A stretch of 35,425 nt of DNA, taken from positions 64,001-99,425 of the IMG/VR virus record IMGVR_UViG_3300001336_000003. One strand, 5' to 3'. Both the position numbers and the translations under genes were made by a program. The notes beneath the pieces are model-generated. The model had not been told where the DNA came from. It did not search any database and saw only the letters and a program-made list of their open reading frames with translations. Position 1 is the stretch's first letter. Each line of letters starts with the position of its first letter. Source of the stretch: a virus. Taxonomy: Duplodnaviria > Heunggongvirae > Uroviricota > Caudoviricetes. Shown piece by piece: positions 2,706 to 34,775 of this stretch.

Positions 2706-3590
2706 TTAGTTTCTCCTTAATAGTCTATCGATTTGTTGTTGGTTAAGAATACCATTTGCTGCAAATCTATTTATTCTTTGCCAAGACTTGACTGCAGCAT
2801 CGGTCACGTTTCCGAATATACCATCTGCGCCAATTTTCAAAGCAGCTTGAACTTGTCTTACCAAATCGCCCCTAGAACCTTTTTGTAACACAATGTCGGA
2901 AGGGGCTTTTTGTGTCACTGAATCGGTGATTTGTTCGTTAACGCTTGTTTTATTTCCCAACACCGATTTAGCAGCAACATATCTTTTTCTTCTATCTTCG
3001 ATACCAATGTCACCGCCATTGACTCTTTTAGACATACCATCAATATCATCGCGATCTGCAAAGCTTGCCAAATTGTTTTTCTGCCAAAACCAACATGCAG
3101 ATTCAAATGCACCTTCTTTTGTTCTTACATAATCAGCGGCTTTTTCTGGTGTCATGTCAATAGATTTGCCGAAACTGGTGAAATTGTTTCTGCCCGTCAA
3201 CTGCTTTATACCACCGCCACGAAATCTCCATCCATCACCTTCACGAACATTTCCTAATGCGCCAGACTTTGAACGAAATTCATCCATGTAAACATAGTTG
3301 GCTATTTTTTGTGGATTTCTGGCATATTCGGCTGCATTTCTTTTTGGTGGGGGGCCAAAGTATCTACCAAAAACGCGATTCAAAGCATCTGCACTATAGT
3401 TCAAATTTTCTTCAAGTGTGCGAAAATCGCCAGATTCATGTGAACATTGCGCCATAAATCCTGCTATTCGATTTGTTGTGTTTATTTGATATTTTTCAAA
3501 AAAACGAATCGCTATTGGATACCATACTTCTGGTTCTTTGTTGGTAGGTATCATTCTTCTGAATTGTTCTAGTGTTGTCATATCGTTCAC
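2706..3590 (-). CDS. Endolysin: glycoside hydrolase family 19 domain plus C-terminal peptidoglycan-binding domain
   Basis: IAGFMAQCSHESGDFRTLEENLNYS, GDGWRFRGGGIKQLTGRNN (GH19) and LQKGSRGDLVRQVQAALKIGADGIFG (PG_binding_1). Confidence 0.9.
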   Translation of the reverse strand: MNDMTTLEQFRRMIPTNKEPEVWYPIAIRFFEKYQINTTNRIAGFMAQCSHESGDFRTLEENLNYSADALNRVFGRYFGPPPKRNAAEYARNPQKIANYVYMDEFRSKSGALGNVREGDGWRFRGGGIKQLTGRNNFTSFGKSIDMTPEKAADYVRTKEGAFESACWFWQKNNLASFADRDDIDGMSKRVNGGDIGIEDRRKRYVAAKSVLGNKTSVNEQITDSVTQKAPSDIVLQKGSRGDLVRQVQAALKIGADGIFGNVTDAAVKSWQRINRFAANGILNQQQIDRLLRRN

Positions 3591-4147
3591 CCTTTAATGT
3601 TTGCGGAACCTATTATGTCTCTAAGTCTTTTCTTGCCGTCTTTTGTTCTTGACTTGTGACGTCTCATTTGTGTTCGATTTAGACCTAGTTCCCCTTGTGG
3701 GCCTACACCTAATCCTGCGATGTTTCCAGAACCTACATTCATTGTAGGAACTTCTTCATTTTTTACCTTGACAACACTTTCATCTAGTGTATAATCGAGG
3801 TATCTCGAAAAAGATTCTATAGATTCATATATAGAATCGTCCGATACATTTTCTGTGAGCATTGTGTCATTTGAAAAATGATTCCATTCGCGAATGAGAT
3901 ATAGTGCGGCCATGTAAGACGCGAGTCTTGTCTGGCCACCAGGGACTTTTTCAATCAACTTTTTTATGTTCAATATCATCAAGTCATAGATACCAAAAGC
4001 ATTTTTTTCTTCTCTAGTCGCCAAAGACTTTCTCTTTTTTAATACGTTACCGCGTTCATCAATTATGCCTAGCTTGAACGCCTCCCAATCTTTGAAAGGC
4101 GTAGCTAGTCTTCTAACGAACTGGTATACGAGATACAAATCTAGCAT
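3587..4147 (-). CDS. Conserved T4-superfamily hypothetical protein
   Basis: DLYLVYQFVRRLATPFKDWEAFKLGIIDERG and EEVPTMNVGSGNIAGLG resemble motifs recurrent in marine T4-like phage proteins; good SD (AAGGA). Confidence 0.7.
   Translation of the reverse strand: MLDLYLVYQFVRRLATPFKDWEAFKLGIIDERGNVLKKRKSLATREEKNAFGIYDLMILNIKKLIEKVPGGQTRLASYMAALYLIREWNHFSNDTMLTENVSDDSIYESIESFSRYLDYTLDESVVKVKNEEVPTMNVGSGNIAGLGVGPQGELGLNRTQMRRHKSRTKDGKKRLRDIIGSANIKG
3768..3795 (+). promoter_or_regulatory. Candidate antisense sigma70-type promoter inside a late gene
   Basis: Plus strand TTGACA (3768-3773), 16-nt spacer, TATAAT (3790-3795). No sense gene lies downstream on this strand. Confidence 0.35.
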
Positions 4148-4187
4148 TTACGTTTCCTTATTTAAGGTTGACACTGAAATAAATTTA

Positions 4188-5150
4188 TTATGTCTCACTT
4201 AAATCTTTTAACACGTCTTCAAGATTGTGATACGGGCCTTTATGCGAGTTTTTTGTTTTTATATGAAAATAACCACTTTTATCTTTGACGACCTTTGTAC
4301 CATCTGCTTTTTTAGTAAGTATTTGTATTATTTTATTCAAAGTGGATTCATTCAAAGACTCATTAACTTCTTTAGTGTAGTAAATTTCTACACTGTCGTC
4401 TTTGTATGAACTGCTATCAGACTTCCATTTTGCATAAAATTGGGTTGGTTGGTTCAACTTAACCCAATCTTTTACTGCTGCAAGTGTGGACTTACCTTTA
4501 GCGCCCGCGTAACCTTTTTTAGCTTTTCCCATGAATTCTTTGACTTTTTTCATAGAATCCAACTGTCTTCCAAAAGGTTGATTTAGGAATTCATTATCGA
4601 TTCCATCAACATTCACGGCATAGCTGAAACCACCTGAACTACCAAAAGCTGGTTTGTCTTTCTTGGCTTCAAGCAAATCAACTGACTCTTTTGCCAATTG
4701 GAATCCAGCATTTTTCATGATGTTTTGCAATCCACCAACTTGTGCTGGTGTGAATGACTTGTTCTTTGCATAGAAGTCAACAAGACCCTTACCAAATTCT
4801 TTTGTCTTTGCATCTTTTGCATTGCTTGCCAACTTCTTTGCAGCAGCGAGAACTTCCGCATCTGACATTTTGGCTTCATCAAGCTTAACTGACTCTTTCT
4901 TCATAGCTTTAGCAATAGCTTGGCGGCGCTTGTGTAGATATTCGTCGGATGAATCAACATCGCCGTCATTGTCGATATCTTTATCTTCACGATCTTCAAA
5001 GTCGCCTTTCAAAGCGTCTGGATTAACTTTGTCAAGCTTTTTCGCTTCCAAAGCAAGAGCAATTCTTTCCATTATTACTTCTTCAAAGACTTGCTTTAAG
5101 CCCAATGGGTTCTTTTCGATGGATTCGTTTATAATTTGTTTGATAGTCAT
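4188..5150 (-). CDS. Modular head/internal protein, N-terminus paralogous to 2003-2704
   Basis: MTIKQIINESIEKNPLGLKQVFEEVIMERIALALEAK; contains the DKDIDNDGDVDSSDEYLHKRRQAI motif; modules separated by LDEA, LLEA and LNES. Confidence 0.6.
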   Translation of the reverse strand: MTIKQIINESIEKNPLGLKQVFEEVIMERIALALEAKKLDKVNPDALKGDFEDREDKDIDNDGDVDSSDEYLHKRRQAIAKAMKKESVKLDEAKMSDAEVLAAAKKLASNAKDAKTKEFGKGLVDFYAKNKSFTPAQVGGLQNIMKNAGFQLAKESVDLLEAKKDKPAFGSSGGFSYAVNVDGIDNEFLNQPFGRQLDSMKKVKEFMGKAKKGYAGAKGKSTLAAVKDWVKLNQPTQFYAKWKSDSSSYKDDSVEIYYTKEVNESLNESTLNKIIQILTKKADGTKVVKDKSGYFHIKTKNSHKGPYHNLEDVLKDLSET

Positions 5151-27187: not shown

Positions 27188-27850
27188 TCAAATTTCCACA
27201 AACAAAACCTTGTTAACGTAACGATCTTTATCTTCTTTGCTTATCCCCATGGAAATTATAGAATTGTGCAGATGTGGGTTTAATTTTTGATTGTAGCAAT
27301 ATTTGTTATGTATGTCAACGTAATTTTTGTCACTTCGTTGTTCATTTTCCAAATTGTTGACATAATATTCTATAAGCCCATAAGTCGTGTTGCACAATTT
27401 TTCAATTTCAGAATCGCGAACATTGCCAGCCGCAATCATGGAATCTGAAAATATTTCTTTCGCCCATTCTGGTAGTTCTCTAGGCTTATTCCAATCAACT
27501 TCTGAAACAACATCGCGAAACGTAGTCATGTATGGATGATGATTACTGATAGGTGAAAAATCAAAAAAGCTCCCTGTTATCTTGTTTTGGCCAGATACAA
27601 CATCAAATCCCAATATAGGGGTATCCATATCAACATGGGGGAAAATGTTTATGTGAAGCAACCACGTTTTTCTACTTTCGCGATTGTCTATCGTTTTCAA
27701 GTGGCATTTTCGTATTTTATCGGAACGCCAATAGGTGTCATTCCACCCATCGAAATCCACTTTTTCATCAAGTGGAAATCTTTCAAATTTGGAATCGAAT
27801 AGGTTTGTTATCCTATCGGTAAGTTCAATCAGTGGTTCCCATATGGCCAA
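27188..27850 (-). CDS. pcyX: Ferredoxin-dependent bilin reductase, PcyX-like
   Basis: WLLHINIFP...PILGFDVVSGQNKITGSFFDFSP, RELPEWAKEIFS, YCYNQKLNPH. The His/Asp pair is of the PcyA/PcyX type. Likely TTG start at 27850 after GGAGGA. Confidence 0.82.
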   Translation of the reverse strand: MAIWEPLIELTDRITNLFDSKFERFPLDEKVDFDGWNDTYWRSDKIRKCHLKTIDNRESRKTWLLHINIFPHVDMDTPILGFDVVSGQNKITGSFFDFSPISNHHPYMTTFRDVVSEVDWNKPRELPEWAKEIFSDSMIAAGNVRDSEIEKLCNTTYGLIEYYVNNLENEQRSDKNYVDIHNKYCYNQKLNPHLHNSIISMGISKEDKDRYVNKVLFVEI

Positions 27851-28391
27851 CAGATTCCTCCAATTCTTCCAAAAATTCAGTAACCATATCAAAACAAGTC
27901 TTAGCTTCATCGGCCAAACCATCATGTAGTTTTTCGCGCATTTTACTTTTTAGAACTTCAATGTCGCCATCAAATTCGTATCGCGTTGCCGAACCAAACA
28001 CGAATCTTTTTAAAATCTGCCCGCCAGACAAATCACCCATGTGATGAACATATATGTGTGCTAAAAGCTTATCTTTATCATCTTCAAGACGCATAACATA
28101 ATCATAGTAATGCATAGCAGATTTCAAAGGTTTTGGCGTTTTGAAATTGTGCATTTTTTCAAGTTCTTGAAGATCCTTCATCATGTTAACCGAACGCTTG
28201 ATGCCTTCAATTCCTTCTAGGACACCAGCTTTTTCAGACCATTCTTCTAGAATAGAATACATCAAAAACATGTTGGATAAGTATATGTAATACTGTATAG
28301 GCGTCATGTTTTTCTTCAACATCCTATTGACAAAAGCAGTCTTTTCTGCTCGCGTGTGATGATGCTTAGTCAATTCTTTCAAATTGCTCAT
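27825..28391 (-). CDS. Heme oxygenase (HemO/Ho1-like)
   Basis: LKELTKHHHTRAE (proximal His), LLAHIYVHHMGDLSGGQIL, LADEAKTCF. Confidence 0.93.
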   Translation of the reverse strand: MSNLKELTKHHHTRAEKTAFVNRMLKKNMTPIQYYIYLSNMFLMYSILEEWSEKAGVLEGIEGIKRSVNMMKDLQELEKMHNFKTPKPLKSAMHYYDYVMRLEDDKDKLLAHIYVHHMGDLSGGQILKRFVFGSATRYEFDGDIEVLKSKMREKLHDGLADEAKTCFDMVTEFLEELEESVGHMGTTD

Positions 28392-28638: not shown

Positions 28639-28890
28639 TTATTTAGACTTATCCGAAACGAAGTTATACAATGCAGATGATCTTGTTACTACATCTTCTG
28701 CAGTGTAGGGTTTCGGTGCGTTCTGTTCTATATGACTCATGATATCATTTGCAGGAACTTGTTGCGAAGAACGCATTGTTTCCACTTCTTCACGAAATTT
28801 AAGTTCTTTTGTTCTATGCTCGGTTTCAAGCATTTCTTGTGCCATTTTCAGAACGTCAAGACGAACTTCAAAGGGATTCTTATTTGTCAT
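28639..28890 (-). CDS. Conserved small T4-superfamily hypothetical protein
   Basis: KNPFEVRLDVLKMAQEMLE...YTAEDVVTRSSALYNFVS. Confidence 0.75.
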   Translation of the reverse strand: MTNKNPFEVRLDVLKMAQEMLETEHRTKELKFREEVETMRSSQQVPANDIMSHIEQNAPKPYTAEDVVTRSSALYNFVSDKSK

Positions 28891-29671
28891 CTTGTTTTAC
28901 CGCACTCATTCTTTCTTCATCTGTGAATGTGGAAGAAGCATATGCAAGTGTAGAATCCATGCCAGAAGCATAAGCGGTTCTCATGCGTGAAGTCATAGCA
29001 GATGCGGAACGCATGGTGCTTCCCATAGAAGCGGTGTCATACTGCATTGTATTTTGCTGCCCAAACCCAAGGCTTGCACCTGCGGCAAATGCGTCAATGT
29101 TAGCACCAAGGAACATGAATCCCCAATTTTTACCTTCCGCTTTCTCGACCATTTGCTTGACGTTTGTATTGTCAAAAGTTTTGGAAGCGTTTTCATGACC
29201 GTCTGTCAAGATAGTGATGATAATAGAATCATTTGTTGTGCCTTGTGGATTGTAGGTTTTTTCGTCAATGCTACTGACTTCTTCAATCGAAACGCGATTG
29301 AACACACAATTCACCGAATGTCCATCGAATTTGTAAAGCGAAACAAAAGTAGGGATACTAGTGTTTTTAGCATCTTCGCGTTGCATTTGTAGATATTCGT
29401 TATATCCAGAAATAGTAGCTTCCCTACATGATTGCATGGAACCAGAATCGTCTAGAACGAAAATGATATGTGAAGTTTTTTTTCCAGCACGTTTAGGCTT
29501 GAATGCTTCTGCTAGATTTGGTTTTTGTAATGTATTGTTTACAGAATAAACTGGTGGGACTGGTGTAATTGGACTTGGGAATGAACTTGGCGACATGTTG
29601 ACATATCCGCCTGACTGAATTCCGATACCATTTGTTACTACTTGAGCTTGTGAATTAATACGTCTTATCAT
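28880..29671 (-). CDS. von Willebrand factor type A (vWA) domain protein, apparently with an internal in-frame deletion
   Basis: FVLDDSGSM (DxSxS), GTT, ILTDGHENAS, WGFMFLGAN. Confidence 0.85.
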   Translation of the reverse strand: MIRRINSQAQVVTNGIGIQSGGYVNMSPSSFPSPITPVPPVYSVNNTLQKPNLAEAFKPKRAGKKTSHIIFVLDDSGSMQSCREATISGYNEYLQMQREDAKNTSIPTFVSLYKFDGHSVNCVFNRVSIEEVSSIDEKTYNPQGTTNDSIIITILTDGHENASKTFDNTNVKQMVEKAEGKNWGFMFLGANIDAFAAGASLGFGQQNTMQYDTASMGSTMRSASAMTSRMRTAYASGMDSTLAYASSTFTDEERMSAVKQDDK

Positions 29672-29702
29672 TTATAGACCTTTCTATGTTGTGTGATGTG
29701 TA

Positions 29703-30007
29703 AGTGGGTCCGTTATTTTATACGGTGGAACCCATACCGCAAGAGATTAAGCCGCTAGGCGAACCTCTGGTTTTGCATTTGTGTTTGCATTTCTTAGTTT
29801 CGTCGCGTTAACCCAGCTTAGATCGGGGTAGCTCCATCCTGCCTATTCCGCCTGTCGATCCCATTTCACCCCCAGCAAAGATACACTTACCGCCTCGCCT
29901 AATCCCGCAGTCCGAAACAAGTTGTCCTGCTACTTAAAGTGTATCTGTGGTGGAGGTGTCGGCTTCGAAGCCGAGTCCAGAACGTTTTCAGTGAACTTCA
30001 TCACTAC
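29703..30007 (-). ncRNA. ssrA: Circularly permuted (two-piece) tmRNA; tag peptide (A)ANTNAKPEVRLAA at 29788-29747
   Basis: T-arm and acceptor end (CTCGGCTTCGAAGCCGACACCTCCACCA, ending at 29948) come first. A 74-nt intervening segment follows, then the 5' end GGGGGTG at 29873, which pairs 7/7 with CACCTCC including the G3-U70 Ala identity pair. The tag ORF ends LAA-stop and is followed by a pseudoknot-like region. Outer ends are approximate. Confidence 0.92.
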
Positions 30008-30012
30008 AATCT

Positions 30013-30020
30013 TATTTATA
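30013..30020 (-). promoter_or_regulatory. T4-type late promoter TATAAATA driving the tmRNA
   Basis: Exact consensus between a terminator hairpin and the tmRNA acceptor piece. Confidence 0.8.
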
Positions 30021-30021
30021 T

Positions 30022-30050
30022 AGAAATGGGAGGCTAACCTTGGCCTCCCA
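30022..30050 (-). terminator. Terminator after the OMP gene
   Basis: TGGGAGGC / GCCTCCCA 8-bp stem followed by TTTCT on the minus strand. Confidence 0.65.
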
Positions 30051-30081: not shown

Positions 30082-30678
30082 TTAGAACTTCAAGCCAACC
30101 GAAAGATTGAAGTTGGTTTCGTCAGAACCAGTATCAAACCCACGAACTAGGCTAGGCGTAACAGTTACATTGTCAACAACGGTGAATGGAACACCGACTT
30201 CAACATAACCACCAGCGCGTGACCAGTCATCGCTTGCATTCCAAGTGTAACCTACTTCACCGAAAACGGAAACACCATCAGCGAACGCATAGGATACACC
30301 AACGGATGGGTCAAAGAAGAAATCGCCATCTTTAAGGTCGGTATTTACAGTTGCATATTCAACTGCTGCGGTTCCATAAACAGTTGTGTTTGTTGCAGCA
30401 GCCCAATTAACATTGTATTCGCCGCGAACACCGATAGTATCGGTATCAAGGTTATAGCTAAGCGCACCACGAACATTTGCATCAACTGCACCAACGGTAT
30501 AAGCAAGACCAGTTGCACCAACTTCAAAATCAGTTAGCCCATCTTCATTTGCATCAAGCGCGAAATCAAGCGCACCAGAAGTAACAGTAACGCCATATGT
30601 GTTATTGTCGAAATCTGCGGCCATAGCAGAAGTTGCCATTGTGGTGATAAGCGCCAAAGTTGCTAGAATAGTTTTCAT
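30082..30678 (-). CDS. Beta-barrel outer membrane protein
   Basis: Sec signal peptide (MKTILATLALITTMATSAMA), alternating-pattern beta strands, C-terminal LSVGLKF with terminal Phe (Bam signal); SD AAGGAG. Confidence 0.85.
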   Translation of the reverse strand: MKTILATLALITTMATSAMAADFDNNTYGVTVTSGALDFALDANEDGLTDFEVGATGLAYTVGAVDANVRGALSYNLDTDTIGVRGEYNVNWAAATNTTVYGTAAVEYATVNTDLKDGDFFFDPSVGVSYAFADGVSVFGEVGYTWNASDDWSRAGGYVEVGVPFTVVDNVTVTPSLVRGFDTGSDETNFNLSVGLKF

Positions 30679-30805
30679 TATAGTCTCCTTCATATATGAT
30701 ATTTAACACCCCTTTGAGGGTGTTGGTTGAATTAACGATGTTATTGGATTGTCTTTATAGAACAAAGGTTCTATTGTCGCAAATCACATCAATTAAGTAG
30801 TGTTA

Positions 30806-30881: not shown

Positions 30882-31028
30882 TTATAGCTTGAACTCTACC
30901 TTCTTTTTTTCAAAGGTGTCGTTCAAGTTATTCATTTCTTCACGCGAAATCATTTCATCATCCCAAACCGTTTCTTTTTTGGTATTGGGTTTTTTTGTCT
31001 TGTCGGGTTCTAAATTTTTCATAACCAT
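30882..31028 (-). CDS. 48-aa mini-protein homologous to the C-terminal tail of the upstream Alt-like protein
   Basis: ETVWDDEMISREEMNNLND aligns with Alt ESVWDEELLSLDDMKDLED; SD AAGGAAGG before the ATG at 31028. Confidence 0.7.
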   Translation of the reverse strand: MVMKNLEPDKTKKPNTKKETVWDDEMISREEMNNLNDTFEKKKVEFKL

Positions 31029-31047
31029 ACCTTCCTTTAACTGTCTA

Positions 31048-31076
31048 TGTATAACAGTTATGGAATGAATTGTCAA
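31048..31076 (-). promoter_or_regulatory. Candidate sigma70-type promoter for the Alt-tail mini-gene
   Basis: TTGACA (31076-31071, overlapping the alt stop), 17-nt spacer ending in TGt, then TATACA (31053-31048). Confidence 0.55.
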
Positions 31077-33208
31077 TAGGTAATTTTGATTTTACCCTTA
31101 GCGATTTTATCTTCCAAATCTTTCATATCATCAAGCGACAACAATTCTTCATCCCAAACAGATTCAGATTTCTTAGTTTTCTTGTCGTCTTGCTTCTTAT
31201 TTTCGAAAAGCATTTTAAGATCGTCTGCACCTTTTTTGTATGCCTCATAGAAGCTTTCAGCGCCGTTGCCTGTATATACACCCACGACATATGGCTTTTT
31301 TAACGTCCCTTGCGTTGTGTGATATACTTCGGTGAATCTTATTCTACTAAAAGGTGGTAGCATGATTTCTTTTTCCCCAGGGACGCCAGAAAAATTCAAA
31401 ACTGGAATGCATCTTGTTCCTTTTGGGAGGAATATCTTCATTCTCATAGAATCGGGCTTTTCACCCATAGATACCTGTGTGCTCAAAGAAGTGGATAGCC
31501 AAGCAGGATCTACAAAAACATCACCAGGTTCAAATTTACCTTGGCCTGGGACTTTGGCATTTCGATAAACCCATACATCATCTTCCATCTCCACAGCATA
31601 TTTACTATAGAATTTGAACATGGCGTCTGAATTGCTATCTAAGTAAAAATCGCCCGTTTTTATAGAAGATAGTGATTTTCTAAGATTTGGGTTTATTATT
31701 TTATATCCAGTACCAGTGTATGATCTAAATGAACGAACCGCTTTTAATTCTTCACGTTCTTCTTCACTTAGACTTGAAGAATCATCTATGCTTTTTCCTG
31801 CCCATTTTTCGAATATGGTAGCAAATTGATTATAGCTTTTATAGCTTTTCACAACATTTATTTTTTCGGTGATATTTTCTTGGGTGTTTCCAAATCCTAG
31901 ACCGTTATCCCATTTTGTAGCGTTATCACCAGAAAAAGCTTCTTTTTTTGCTTGGACTGCAAACGGCAATTCCAAAACTTTGGCGGAATCTAGTGTAGTT
32001 TTATACATATCAGAAGCTTTTGCGGTGTCTATGTTTTTGACTGCTATGAAAGCAGCACGTGCGCTTTTAGCATCTTCTGGTGTCATGTCTATAACATCAT
32101 TAAGAACCTGTTCCCACATTTTCTTATTTTTCACGCCAATCTTCATCAAGCCGTTATCATTTGTAAGGCCCATATTCACCATGATCTTTCTCATAGTTAT
32201 TGATGAATCGTATTTGTATATGGACTTGAAAACACTTTTAAGACTACTGACCAAATACTTATCATCCATCTTATTACCTTCTTTGCCCAACTTATTCAAT
32301 GCGCTATTAAGACTCCAAGACATTCTTGATTTAATCAAACCAGCAAGCGGTATGTTGTCACTATGAATATCGTCACCTTGTTTGTAAGTCAAAGAAATTT
32401 TCGCCAAAGGTGGCTCTTCTACTTTGTCTCCAACAACTTCATCGCTTTTCAGAAGATCCACTACGTTTGAACCGCCTTTACTTTTCACAGCTTTGTTCGA
32501 TATGTCGTCAATGAGTTTCACGTCTTGACTATCAATTTCGTTACCCAAATCTAACTTCTTGAAAGCATAACGCTTGCTTGGAGTCGTGCTCACAATTTCT
32601 TTTTGCTTTCTATACGGCACAGTGATTTTTTCGATGTTTTCACTTGTTATGATATCTTCGATTTCCATGTTTGTTGGGTCAAACTCGAAGTGCTTTTTGA
32701 ACACCGCAGTCTTGAATATCATTTCAGGGCTTACGCTTTTCTTCGTGACAAAAATGTAGTTTCGAGCACCATCTGATATTTTTTTGACAGGGACGACACG
32801 GAATGTCTGTATGTAGGTCTTTTTCAAGATTCTGGTCAAAAGACTTTGATATCTTTCCGAACCAGTTTTGCCAGGAATATCTATGATTATTCCGTTCATC
32901 CTATTGCGAATGAACGGATACGAAGCTTCCATGAATTTTAGGAATGTTGACAGGACAGGGCGAATGTCAGAAGGCGTCTTGAAAGACCACGTTCTTTTTT
33001 TGACACTTACAATACGGTATAGTTCTATCATGTAAACTTTATCGTAAGTCGTTTCCACTAAAGACATGCCATAGTCAGAACCATTGATTTTTGCAGTTGC
33101 ATAAATTTGTTTAGGAAGAATGGTATCTTCCGTCATTTCAAATTCTACAGCCGTATCTAAAGATTCAAAAAAATAGTCTTGCTCTCTATAATCAACGAAA
33201 GACTTCAT
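31073..33208 (-). CDS. alt: Alt-like ADP-ribosyltransferase (C-terminal VIP2-type domain)
   Basis: R-S-E catalytic motifs VYRN, LSTSL and GEKEIML; YTGTGYKIINPNLR; CTS-like start MKSFVDY; 711 aa. Confidence 0.8.
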   Translation of the reverse strand: MKSFVDYREQDYFFESLDTAVEFEMTEDTILPKQIYATAKINGSDYGMSLVETTYDKVYMIELYRIVSVKKRTWSFKTPSDIRPVLSTFLKFMEASYPFIRNRMNGIIIDIPGKTGSERYQSLLTRILKKTYIQTFRVVPVKKISDGARNYIFVTKKSVSPEMIFKTAVFKKHFEFDPTNMEIEDIITSENIEKITVPYRKQKEIVSTTPSKRYAFKKLDLGNEIDSQDVKLIDDISNKAVKSKGGSNVVDLLKSDEVVGDKVEEPPLAKISLTYKQGDDIHSDNIPLAGLIKSRMSWSLNSALNKLGKEGNKMDDKYLVSSLKSVFKSIYKYDSSITMRKIMVNMGLTNDNGLMKIGVKNKKMWEQVLNDVIDMTPEDAKSARAAFIAVKNIDTAKASDMYKTTLDSAKVLELPFAVQAKKEAFSGDNATKWDNGLGFGNTQENITEKINVVKSYKSYNQFATIFEKWAGKSIDDSSSLSEEEREELKAVRSFRSYTGTGYKIINPNLRKSLSSIKTGDFYLDSNSDAMFKFYSKYAVEMEDDVWVYRNAKVPGQGKFEPGDVFVDPAWLSTSLSTQVSMGEKPDSMRMKIFLPKGTRCIPVLNFSGVPGEKEIMLPPFSRIRFTEVYHTTQGTLKKPYVVGVYTGNGAESFYEAYKKGADDLKMLFENKKQDDKKTKKSESVWDEELLSLDDMKDLEDKIAKGKIKITY

Positions 33209-33233: not shown

Positions 33234-33926
33234 TCACTTATTTATCTGGTTCCACATTTCCAAATCTTCTGGCGTATTAATTTCAATACCATCGAAGTCT
33301 ACCTCAACAACTGATATGGAAACGCCATTCTGTATCCATCTAAGTTGTTCAAGTTTTTCAATCTGTTCTTCTGGATACACCTTCAATTTCCCATAATTTT
33401 TCAAAGCACCTTTTGTGTATCCATATATACCCAAATGATGTGAACCGTATGCCAAAGAAGAACGGCAGAACCAATGCGCTAAAGAATCTGTGTGTATCAT
33501 TTTTACAGCATTTTGGTCTTGTTGTTTTTCAGGCGTCATTTTAGTATATGCGGTCACGATTCCACCACTAACATAATCATAGCCATATCTATCAAGCCAT
33601 GACGCTATTTTTTCTATAATTTCTGGTGTGATATCTGGCATGTCACCTTGGACATTTATGAACTTGGTATAGTTAAATTTGTCGATAACTTCACCACATC
33701 GGCTAGTGCCATTTTCATGATTTTCGCTTGTTATTATAGAATTGGGAACCGCACTTGCTATTCTATCATCATCAGTTAAAACGTATGTGTCTAATCCAGT
33801 TGACGCGCAAATATCATAAACGCGGCGTATAAGTGGTTTGCCGCCAACGTCTGATAGCATTTTTGCGGGGAAACGTGTGCTAGCGTATCTTGCTGGAATC
33901 AGAATGGCTATGTCTTTTGTATTCAT
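33234..33926 (-). CDS. kdsB: CMP-Kdo synthetase (3-deoxy-manno-octulosonate cytidylyltransferase)
   Basis: IPARYASTRFPAK, NVQGDMP, HLGIYGY, EKLEQLRW, EINTPED. Start moved to 33926. Confidence 0.93.
   Translation of the reverse strand: MNTKDIAILIPARYASTRFPAKMLSDVGGKPLIRRVYDICASTGLDTYVLTDDDRIASAVPNSIITSENHENGTSRCGEVIDKFNYTKFINVQGDMPDITPEIIEKIASWLDRYGYDYVSGGIVTAYTKMTPEKQQDQNAVKMIHTDSLAHWFCRSSLAYGSHHLGIYGYTKGALKNYGKLKVYPEEQIEKLEQLRWIQNGVSISVVEVDFDGIEINTPEDLEMWNQINK
33239..33246 (-). promoter_or_regulatory. Late promoter variant GATAAATA upstream of alt
   Basis: 7/8 match, 31 nt upstream of the alt ATG. Confidence 0.5.
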
Positions 33927-34686
33927 AATTATACTCCACAATATTTTCAATCGCTAATTCGAAATCGTATAGTTTTAGCATGTTTGGCCCATCACTTGGT
34001 GCATTATCTGGATCAGGATGAACTTCTAAGAAAAAATTCGATACACCTAATGCAGAAGCTGCACGACATAAAGGAATAACATCAGCGCGATTGCCGCCAC
34101 TACTATCACCTTTTCCACCTGGTTTTTGAACAGAATGTGTAACATCAAATATAATAGGATCATCATAATTAGCCAACATATAATTAAGGCCAGTAAAGTC
34201 AACAACGAGTGTATTGTAACCAAAGCTAGTCCCCCGTTCTGTTATCCAAACTTCTTTAGCATCCATAGTCTTTGACAAAATACCTTTCACATCCCATGGT
34301 GCCAAAAATTGACCCTTTTTGATATTTACTATTCTGCCAGTCTTACATGCAGCAACAATCAAATCAGTCTGGCGGCATAGAAAGGCGGGTATCTGCAAAA
34401 CATCCACACAACCAGAATAGTTTACCAGTTCGACTTGTTCAACGTCATGAACATCTGTCAAGATTCTAACGCCCAATTTATCTTTCAACACATGGAAATC
34501 GCCCATTGTAGGAATGACGCCCATTCCACGTTTACCTGTAATGCTTGTTCTATTGGCTTTGTCGTAACTTGCTTTAAAATAATAGTCCACGCCATATTTG
34601 GCGCAGACTGCTTTACAATGGCTTGCTATTTCTAAACTTTGTTCCAAACTTTCGTGTTGGCAAGGCCCTGCTATGATTCTTATCAT
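33880..34686 (-). CDS. kdsA: KDO-8-phosphate synthase
   Basis: IAGPCQHES, FKASYDKANRTS, QIPAFLCRQTDL, NIKKGQFLAPW, TERGTSFGY, DVTHSVQ, EVHPDPDNAPSDG. Start moved to 34686. Confidence 0.97.
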   Translation of the reverse strand: MIRIIAGPCQHESLEQSLEIASHCKAVCAKYGVDYYFKASYDKANRTSITGKRGMGVIPTMGDFHVLKDKLGVRILTDVHDVEQVELVNYSGCVDVLQIPAFLCRQTDLIVAACKTGRIVNIKKGQFLAPWDVKGILSKTMDAKEVWITERGTSFGYNTLVVDFTGLNYMLANYDDPIIFDVTHSVQKPGGKGDSSGGNRADVIPLCRAASALGVSNFFLEVHPDPDNAPSDGPNMLKLYDFELAIENIVEYNYEYKRHSHSDSSKIR

Positions 34687-34775
34687 TCCAACACCTTCAC
34701 TATCCATCTTGGTTTTAGTTGTCCAAAGTATCTGGCATATACGACTTTGCCAACCCTTTCATATATTAGCTTCAT
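34683..34775 (-). CDS. 30-aa protein MKLIYERVGKVVYARYFGQLKPRWIVKVLE (below the ORF-track cutoff)
   Basis: ATGA overlap with the cupin stop and with the kdsA start; fills the gap exactly. Confidence 0.7.
   Translation of the reverse strand: MKLIYERVGKVVYARYFGQLKPRWIVKVLE

Follow-up and report, generated by a model that had tools for sequence, protein, structure and literature searches.

Alt of phage T4 is the model for an ADP-ribosyltransferase (ART) that is synthesized late, packaged, cleaved at both ends and injected (PMC5694885, PMC9026906, PMC9697503). Its gene is a late gene (PMC9697503), and a 63-residue C-terminal propeptide is lost at LTE-619, a trimming precedent that the original prediction for the present locus had correctly invoked; whether the T4 Alt propeptides act in targeting, tethering or control has been posed as an open question (PMC5694885). 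In the Rpn system, a long toxic enzyme is blocked by its own C-terminal part, which is translated separately from a start inside the gene; rpnA has an internal promoter as well (PMC10400941). The literature searched offered no explanation of how an ART that is toxic and promiscuous can be produced by a phage without damage to the producing cell, or how the injected enzyme is stopped, and our searches returned no description of an ART with a free copy of its tail. Here we describe such a module, which is real, conserved and apparently undescribed, in a window of 35,425 nt (positions 64,001 to 99,425 of the record IMGVR_UViG_3300001336_000003), the right part of a 99-kb contig from a marine T4-like phage (Table 1).

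Table 1. Features of the ART locus (window positions).
Feature	Position	Strand	Remarks
Mini-gene	30882..31022	-	46 aa (48 from ATG at 31028); free tail copy, predicted trans-inhibitor
Shine-Dalgarno (SD) of the mini-gene, AAGGAAGGT	31029..31037	-	-9.1 kcal/mol for ATG at 31022
Sigma70-type promoter, TTGACA-17-TATACA	31048..31076	-	Overlaps ART stop codon
Alt-like R-S-E ART gene	31073..33208	-	711 aa; family of >100 clusters at 50% identity
C-terminal tail, residues 670-711	31076..31201	-	Disordered Lys-rich linker followed by the conserved motif and a helix (core at about 31109-31165)
LFE 667-669, predicted prohead-protease site	31202..31210	-	gp21-type protease on same contig
ART domain, residues 468-629	31322..31807	-	PF03496, E 1e-11; R549, S572-T-S574, E612-x-E614 intact
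N-terminal 15-residue putative propeptide ending FFE	33164..33208	-	Appears to resemble the T4 capsid-targeting sequence
Late-type promoter element, GATAAATA	33239..33246	-	38 nt before ART start; one mismatch from TATAAATA; presumed function

The large gene of the module had been predicted to encode an Alt-like ART behind a late-type element. Its place among the R-S-E ARTs of the Alt/VIP2 type was borne out by fold and by the R, STS and ExE motifs, with PF03496 above cut-off and Foldseek matches to C3 and VIP2, and R549, S572, E612 and E614 were invariant across 89 ART homologues. The relationship to T4 Alt itself extended less far: a PHROG search of the ART gave no match, hhalign aligned the ART domain alone with T4 Alt (probability 94%, E 1e-7), and the best matches in a structural search of BFVD included full-length Alts with E 1e-13 but a TM of about 0.2. 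Judged by sequence, the enzyme is Alt-like in its catalytic domain, short of demonstrated orthology to T4 Alt. The late-type element is present as well, with the one mismatch given in Table 1; the exact form precedes the ART gene in six relatives (L001, L018, L019, L033, L060, L078) and each of the genes for gp21, gp22 and gp23, which lie on the contig outside the window. Together with the gp21-type protease encoded on the same contig (PF03420, E 4e-37), these elements agree with the setting of T4 Alt, a late gene in a T4-like phage with a gp21 protease. Genes for gp32, UvsX, a helicase and a loader are also found on the contig. No relative was found in bacterial genomes. The cultured Vibrio phages pv27 and SRILMA (L006, L007) carry a family member annotated as hypothetical protein, and in the database protein P0122 (189 aa) the N-terminal domain of the family is joined straight to a tail-like end, without the ART domain. 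Genes following the ART gene in L056 (after 2914) and L062 (after 3121) have N-termini that resemble the putative capsid-targeting propeptide of the ART, which suggests clusters of head-packaged proteins at these two loci.

Both ends of the ART carry predicted protease sites. At the N-terminus, E15 is almost invariant in the 89 homologues, the position two before this Glu is occupied by L, I, F or V in each of the 84 cases scored, and the gp21 and gp23 proteins of the contig bear LITE and LLME close to their own N-termini. The C-terminal tail, found in 85 of the 89 homologues with a consensus of roughly YDPxxKFGG, followed by a helix and then IKxGKLK, begins right after LFE as predicted; hydrophobic-x-E, a motif that is common in general, occurs in 84 of 85 linkers. 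In the AF2 model, pLDDT is mostly 76-90 in the ART domain and below 50 for residues 665-686 (disordered linker), and the tail helix spans residues 692-703.

The gene that follows was claimed to duplicate this tail, and the comparison confirmed it; the mini ORF (30882-31028, minus strand) reads as stated in the original prediction. The mini-protein, for which no Pfam or PHROG match was found, aligned with the last 45 residues of the ART with a BLOSUM62 local score of 79, compared with 28.5 ± 5.5 (maximum 60) for 5000 shuffles of the tail, and the motif common to both was confined to these two ORFs in the 99-kb contig. As stated in the original prediction, the underlying DNA has diverged, namely at silent sites (pS 0.80, pN 0.32), and the mini-gene has its own SD and promoter. 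Because the second ATG (31022) has a better SD than the first (-9.1 versus -4.8 kcal/mol), the product probably comprises 46 and not 48 aa. The promoter matches in class and spacing about 35 minus-strand promoters of the contig that precede non-structural genes, many of them about 50-60 nt ahead; a stock promoter scan, which gave no excess over shuffles, missed it because a T was demanded at the last -10 position. The sole RNA run contained 6% of the words, covering 198 nt within the ART gene and outside the mini-gene.

Several neighbouring genes were recorded. Directly 3' of the mini-gene lies a gene for an outer-membrane beta-barrel protein with signal peptide (30082-30693, minus strand), found at the same place in L001-L005, followed by a phage-encoded permuted (two-piece) tmRNA (29656-30039, minus strand) with the tag ANTNAKPEVRLAA; we take the permuted tmRNA to suggest an alphaproteobacterial host. 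Judged by eye, DNA resembling a tmRNA seems to lie behind the ART gene in L015 and L061 as well. A vWA-like gene (28880-29671, minus strand) has a 24-codon in-frame deletion relative to its orthologue in L008 and may be damaged. Further genes form a pair of heme oxygenase and ferredoxin-dependent bilin reductase (27188-28391, minus strand; orthologues with PF01126 and PF05996), and KdsA- and KdsB-like genes of KDO synthesis, recognized by eye from the translations, lie upstream of the ART gene (33234-34707, minus strand).

A gene of 42-51 aa also follows the ART gene in L001-L005 (66-69% ART identity), L008 (87%) and L009 (51%), as well as in L080, L010, L014, L036, L037 and L045 (about 33%); the mini-gene is kept in 10 distinct loci over 87-33% ART identity in a locus scan that left out the A3 clade as too diverse. 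A profile of the mini-proteins gave 39 database matches, and TTGACA-17-TATnnn precedes 9 of the 10 mini-genes. The mini-proteins resemble the tails of their own clade, with VWD(D/E)E in the group of the window, NIGQDVLISY in L009 and KWGAPTSSY in the L010 group; cognate mini-tail pairs had a mean score of 76.6 versus 46.2 when permuted (p 5e-5, kinship not corrected), and as loci with a mini-gene fall into only two clades, this p-value and that of the Fisher test below overstate independence. At residues identical between tail and mini-protein, the codon differs in 83 of 150 cases. Orthologous mini-genes showed dN/dS values of 0.19-0.39 where unsaturated, and comparison of each tail with its own mini-gene across loci led to pS of 0.43-0.88 and pN of 0.19-0.40 with silent sites near saturation, indicating that selection acts on the peptide and that the gene is neither a decayed nor a freshly converted copy. 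Recent duplication or gene conversion was ruled out by the near-saturated silent sites. The checks of conservation and dN/dS proposed with the original prediction thus came out in its favour, and the decayed duplicate named there as its refutation was not found: the mini-gene is conserved beside the ART homologues, is under purifying selection (0.2-0.4) and tracks the tail of its own genome. In L038, an IS605 OrfB/TnpB-like gene (3321-4509, by eye) directly follows the ART gene, and a database mini-protein, P0194, matches the tail of the L038 ART and may be the product of a displaced L038 mini-gene.

From the sequences of related phages, the same free tail appears to be made in three ways: by a nested start, a duplicated gene or a split gene. 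Among loci without mini-gene, 10 of 13 have a nested SD and in-frame ATG before the tail, compared with none of the 10 loci with mini-gene (p 4e-4) and with 17 of 249 control windows of equal size from other parts of these genes; nested starts were scored with an SD of at most -5 kcal/mol and an ATG 35-62 codons from the end (observed 41-57), the -5 kcal/mol cut and a 45-70 nt window having been picked after looking. The nested SDs occur in differing amino-acid contexts, and recoding with the codon usage of each gene gave a combined p of 0.012. An internal sigma70 match (10-11/12) lies 57-65 nt before the nested ATG at 4 of 11 loci (expected 0.9% per locus), which is the spacing of the mini-gene promoters, and at 6 of 11 no good promoter was found within 200 nt. 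Linkers from outside the mini clades are enriched in Met (53 of 67 carry one; 3.8% versus 2.6%, p 8e-4), those from inside are not; M666 of the window ART has no properly spaced SD, and in phage L006 a nested GAGG-ATG lies ahead of the tail. Among cultured phages, the nested type is represented by the Vibrio phages pv27, phiKT1024 and SRILMA. In L019, L033 and L079, the ART ends right after the catalytic domain and is followed by a gene encoding the tail alone (HMM 12.5, 13.4 and 42.5 bits; best true decoy 5.9 among 330), and an early-type promoter is present at the free tail genes of L019 and L033. Five loci could not be assigned to any of these states from the DNA examined: L038 and L051 have neither nested start nor mini-gene in the available DNA, the ORF after L030 scored no better than the best decoy, and L078 and L081, sister ARTs with intact catalytic residues and no tail, have no adjacent tail gene and are exceptions to the model. 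In a midpoint-rooted tree, the nested state extends across deep branches, mini-genes are confined to two clades, and split genes occur on three branches apart from each other. The ancestral state was likely a gene within a gene, its promoter, SD and ATG all lying inside the ART gene ahead of the tail, from which separate genes would have emerged later by duplication or fission.

Co-folding, a check suggested with the original prediction, was performed with residues 16-669 of the ART and the mini-protein and led to an ipSAE of 0.79, compared with 0.00 for the best of three controls; as structures of ART-immunity complexes have been solved (8ZA7, 6DRH/6DRE), this value may to some degree reflect a memory effect, and the partners in these complexes are unrelated to the mini peptide. 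Of 80 solved complexes, 58 attain the mark applied, as do 2 of 110 mismatched pairs. The runs share at least 59% of contacts, with a partner pLDDT of only 54-56. In the modelled interface, mini-protein residues 20-39, the motif common with the tail, lie on ART residues 497-513, 549-572 and 581-587, and the contacted residues include Y497, N506, R510, R549 and S572, of which Y497, N506, R549 and S572 are invariant and belong to the NAD cleft. The model supports binding of the mini-protein in the NAD cleft of the ART. The tail had been proposed to be either autoinhibitory or targeting; the inhibitory alternative gained from this model and from the nested and split tails of relatives, the targeting alternative had no positive support. 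The interpretation of tail and free copy as ART inhibitor is therefore one that sequence comparison and modelling support computationally.

In the explanation we consider probable, the prohead protease removes the tail as an autoinhibitory propeptide, and an early-made free copy of the tail silences the injected enzyme. The ART would be made late with its tail in the NAD-binding cleft, sparing the producing cell. It would then be packed into the prohead by way of its N-terminal propeptide, where, by analogy with T4 Alt, the gp21-type protease would cut after FFE15 and LFE669 and thereby arm it. After injection, the ART would ADP-ribosylate arginine targets of the host. Host RNA polymerase would transcribe the mini-gene early, as its promoter, SD and conservation suggest, and the free peptide, according to the model, would occupy the cleft and shut off the tail-less enzyme, resulting in a pulse of activity; it might also protect against further ART copies from co-infecting kin.

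The main rival, which we regard as unlikely overall, retains the inhibitor but gives it another purpose: as an antitoxin late in infection, it would guard the producing cell against ART that is leaky or cleaved too soon, and would not act as an early off-switch. This rival is compatible with the explanation above. It is favoured in the lineages of L014 and L079, where neither the mini-gene nor the tail gene has its own promoter and the translation of each is coupled to that of the ART gene, so that late co-expression fits better than an early timer. The nested starts that lack a good promoter, the ARTs of L019, L033 and L079, which have their tail only as a free gene and need inhibition in trans during synthesis, and the Rpn precedent (PMC10400941) point the same way. 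Against it stand the early-type promoters of nearly all mini-genes and of the L019 and L033 tail genes, and the covalent tail, which already protects one-to-one in cis. There is a small chance that the binding partner of the motif is some host or phage protein and not the ART, for docking or substrate recruitment, with the free copy as an independent early effector or competitor. The matching of tail and mini-protein could equally track a host-specific partner, and the peptide amounts to a short, charged helix whose pLDDT in the model is modest; however, the co-fold with its own ART passes while all controls are at 0.00, the contacts are made with NAD-binding residues, and injection would come only after the protease had removed a tail placed behind its site, which leaves no possibility of substrate recruitment. 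It is very improbable that the tail directs the enzyme to the prohead core, as a signal for packaging or tethering, with the free copy tuning or competing for packaging: targeting and tethering are among the options listed as open for the T4 Alt propeptides (PMC5694885), but the N-terminus of the ART already resembles a capsid-targeting propeptide, four homologues have no tail, and the mini-gene promoter is of a non-late class. We likewise give hardly any weight to a neutral origin, in which the 3' end was repeatedly duplicated or converted beside the promoter of downstream genes, nested SDs are by-products of Glu and Gly codons, or the mini frame prolongs the ART by readthrough or frameshifting; the window mini frame indeed has no stop as far back as a TTG that overlaps the stop codon of the ART gene, and Glu/Gly codons yield SD-like words unaided, which recoded linkers frequently keep, but pN is far below pS for orthologous mini-genes and for tail versus mini-gene, mini-frame stops between ART and mini-gene in L001, L008, L009, L010 and L080 rule out a readthrough or frameshift fusion in five relatives, and the linkers of the mini clades are Glu-rich as well, yet a nested SD is found in 0 of 10.

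With the inhibitory propeptide and its early free copy as the preferred reading, the ART family suggests an answer to the T4 Alt propeptide question, which becomes testable with short peptides and cultured phages, the cognate 45-residue peptides being supplied as natural reagents. The family also presents an intragenic antitoxin that is apparently turning into separate genes, by duplication in two clades or by fission on three branches, and flags unannotated genes within genes in cultured Vibrio phages and possibly in T4. A tentative extension, which we would doubt more readily than accept, is that virion ARTs of the Alt type, with T4 Alt among them, are generally zymogens which the prohead protease arms and which their own propeptide later switches off, once it is produced again in free form in the infected cell from a nested, duplicated or split gene. 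If true, Alt-type ARTs would be self-limiting injected effectors.

Compared with T4 Alt (gpAlt, P12726; capsid-packaged and Arg-specific), the window ART has an R-S-E domain, a similar length, a late element and hydrophobic-x-E sites at both ends in common, whereas homology covers the ART domain only, the tails are unrelated in sequence, and T4 has no tail mini-gene. None of the T4 genes alt.-3, alt.-2, alt.-1 and alt.1 resembles a tail copy. The two strongest internal SD and ATG sites of T4 alt (L047; M629 and M637) lie inside the gp21-cleaved tail, and in Alts of Straboviridae (including L082-L095) such sites occur in the tail in 12 of 15 cases versus 22 of 302 control windows, a signal that stems from one conserved motif (DGDxLM) whose Gly-Asp codons form the SD themselves and that is thus a lead only. 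In the MTX/pierisin toxins, a peptide C-terminal to the R-S-E ART domain inhibits it until proteolysis (PMC8120803), as proposed here for the tail, and the free tail copy is modelled in the ART cleft in the present case; in contrast, these toxins have no separately encoded free copy and are activated by gut proteases instead of a prohead protease. An adjacent downstream gene neutralises an R-S-E ART in effector-immunity pairs (Tre1-Tri1, 6DRH/6DRE; the Lmo0066 pair, 8ZA7) and in phage toxin-antitoxin pairs (PMC9503650), although the partners there are folded hydrolases or unrelated antitoxins and not an own-tail copy of about 45 aa without Pfam match. The nested state of the ART relatives matches the layout of the Rpn intragenic antitoxins (RpnL/RpnS), which differ in belonging to bacterial anti-phage DNases and not to a phage ART with a tail that a protease is predicted to remove, and the free tail of the ARTs also arises as a duplicated or split gene. 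As the short protein of the window has its own gene, the locus is not a member of the Rpn type, though it would work like one.
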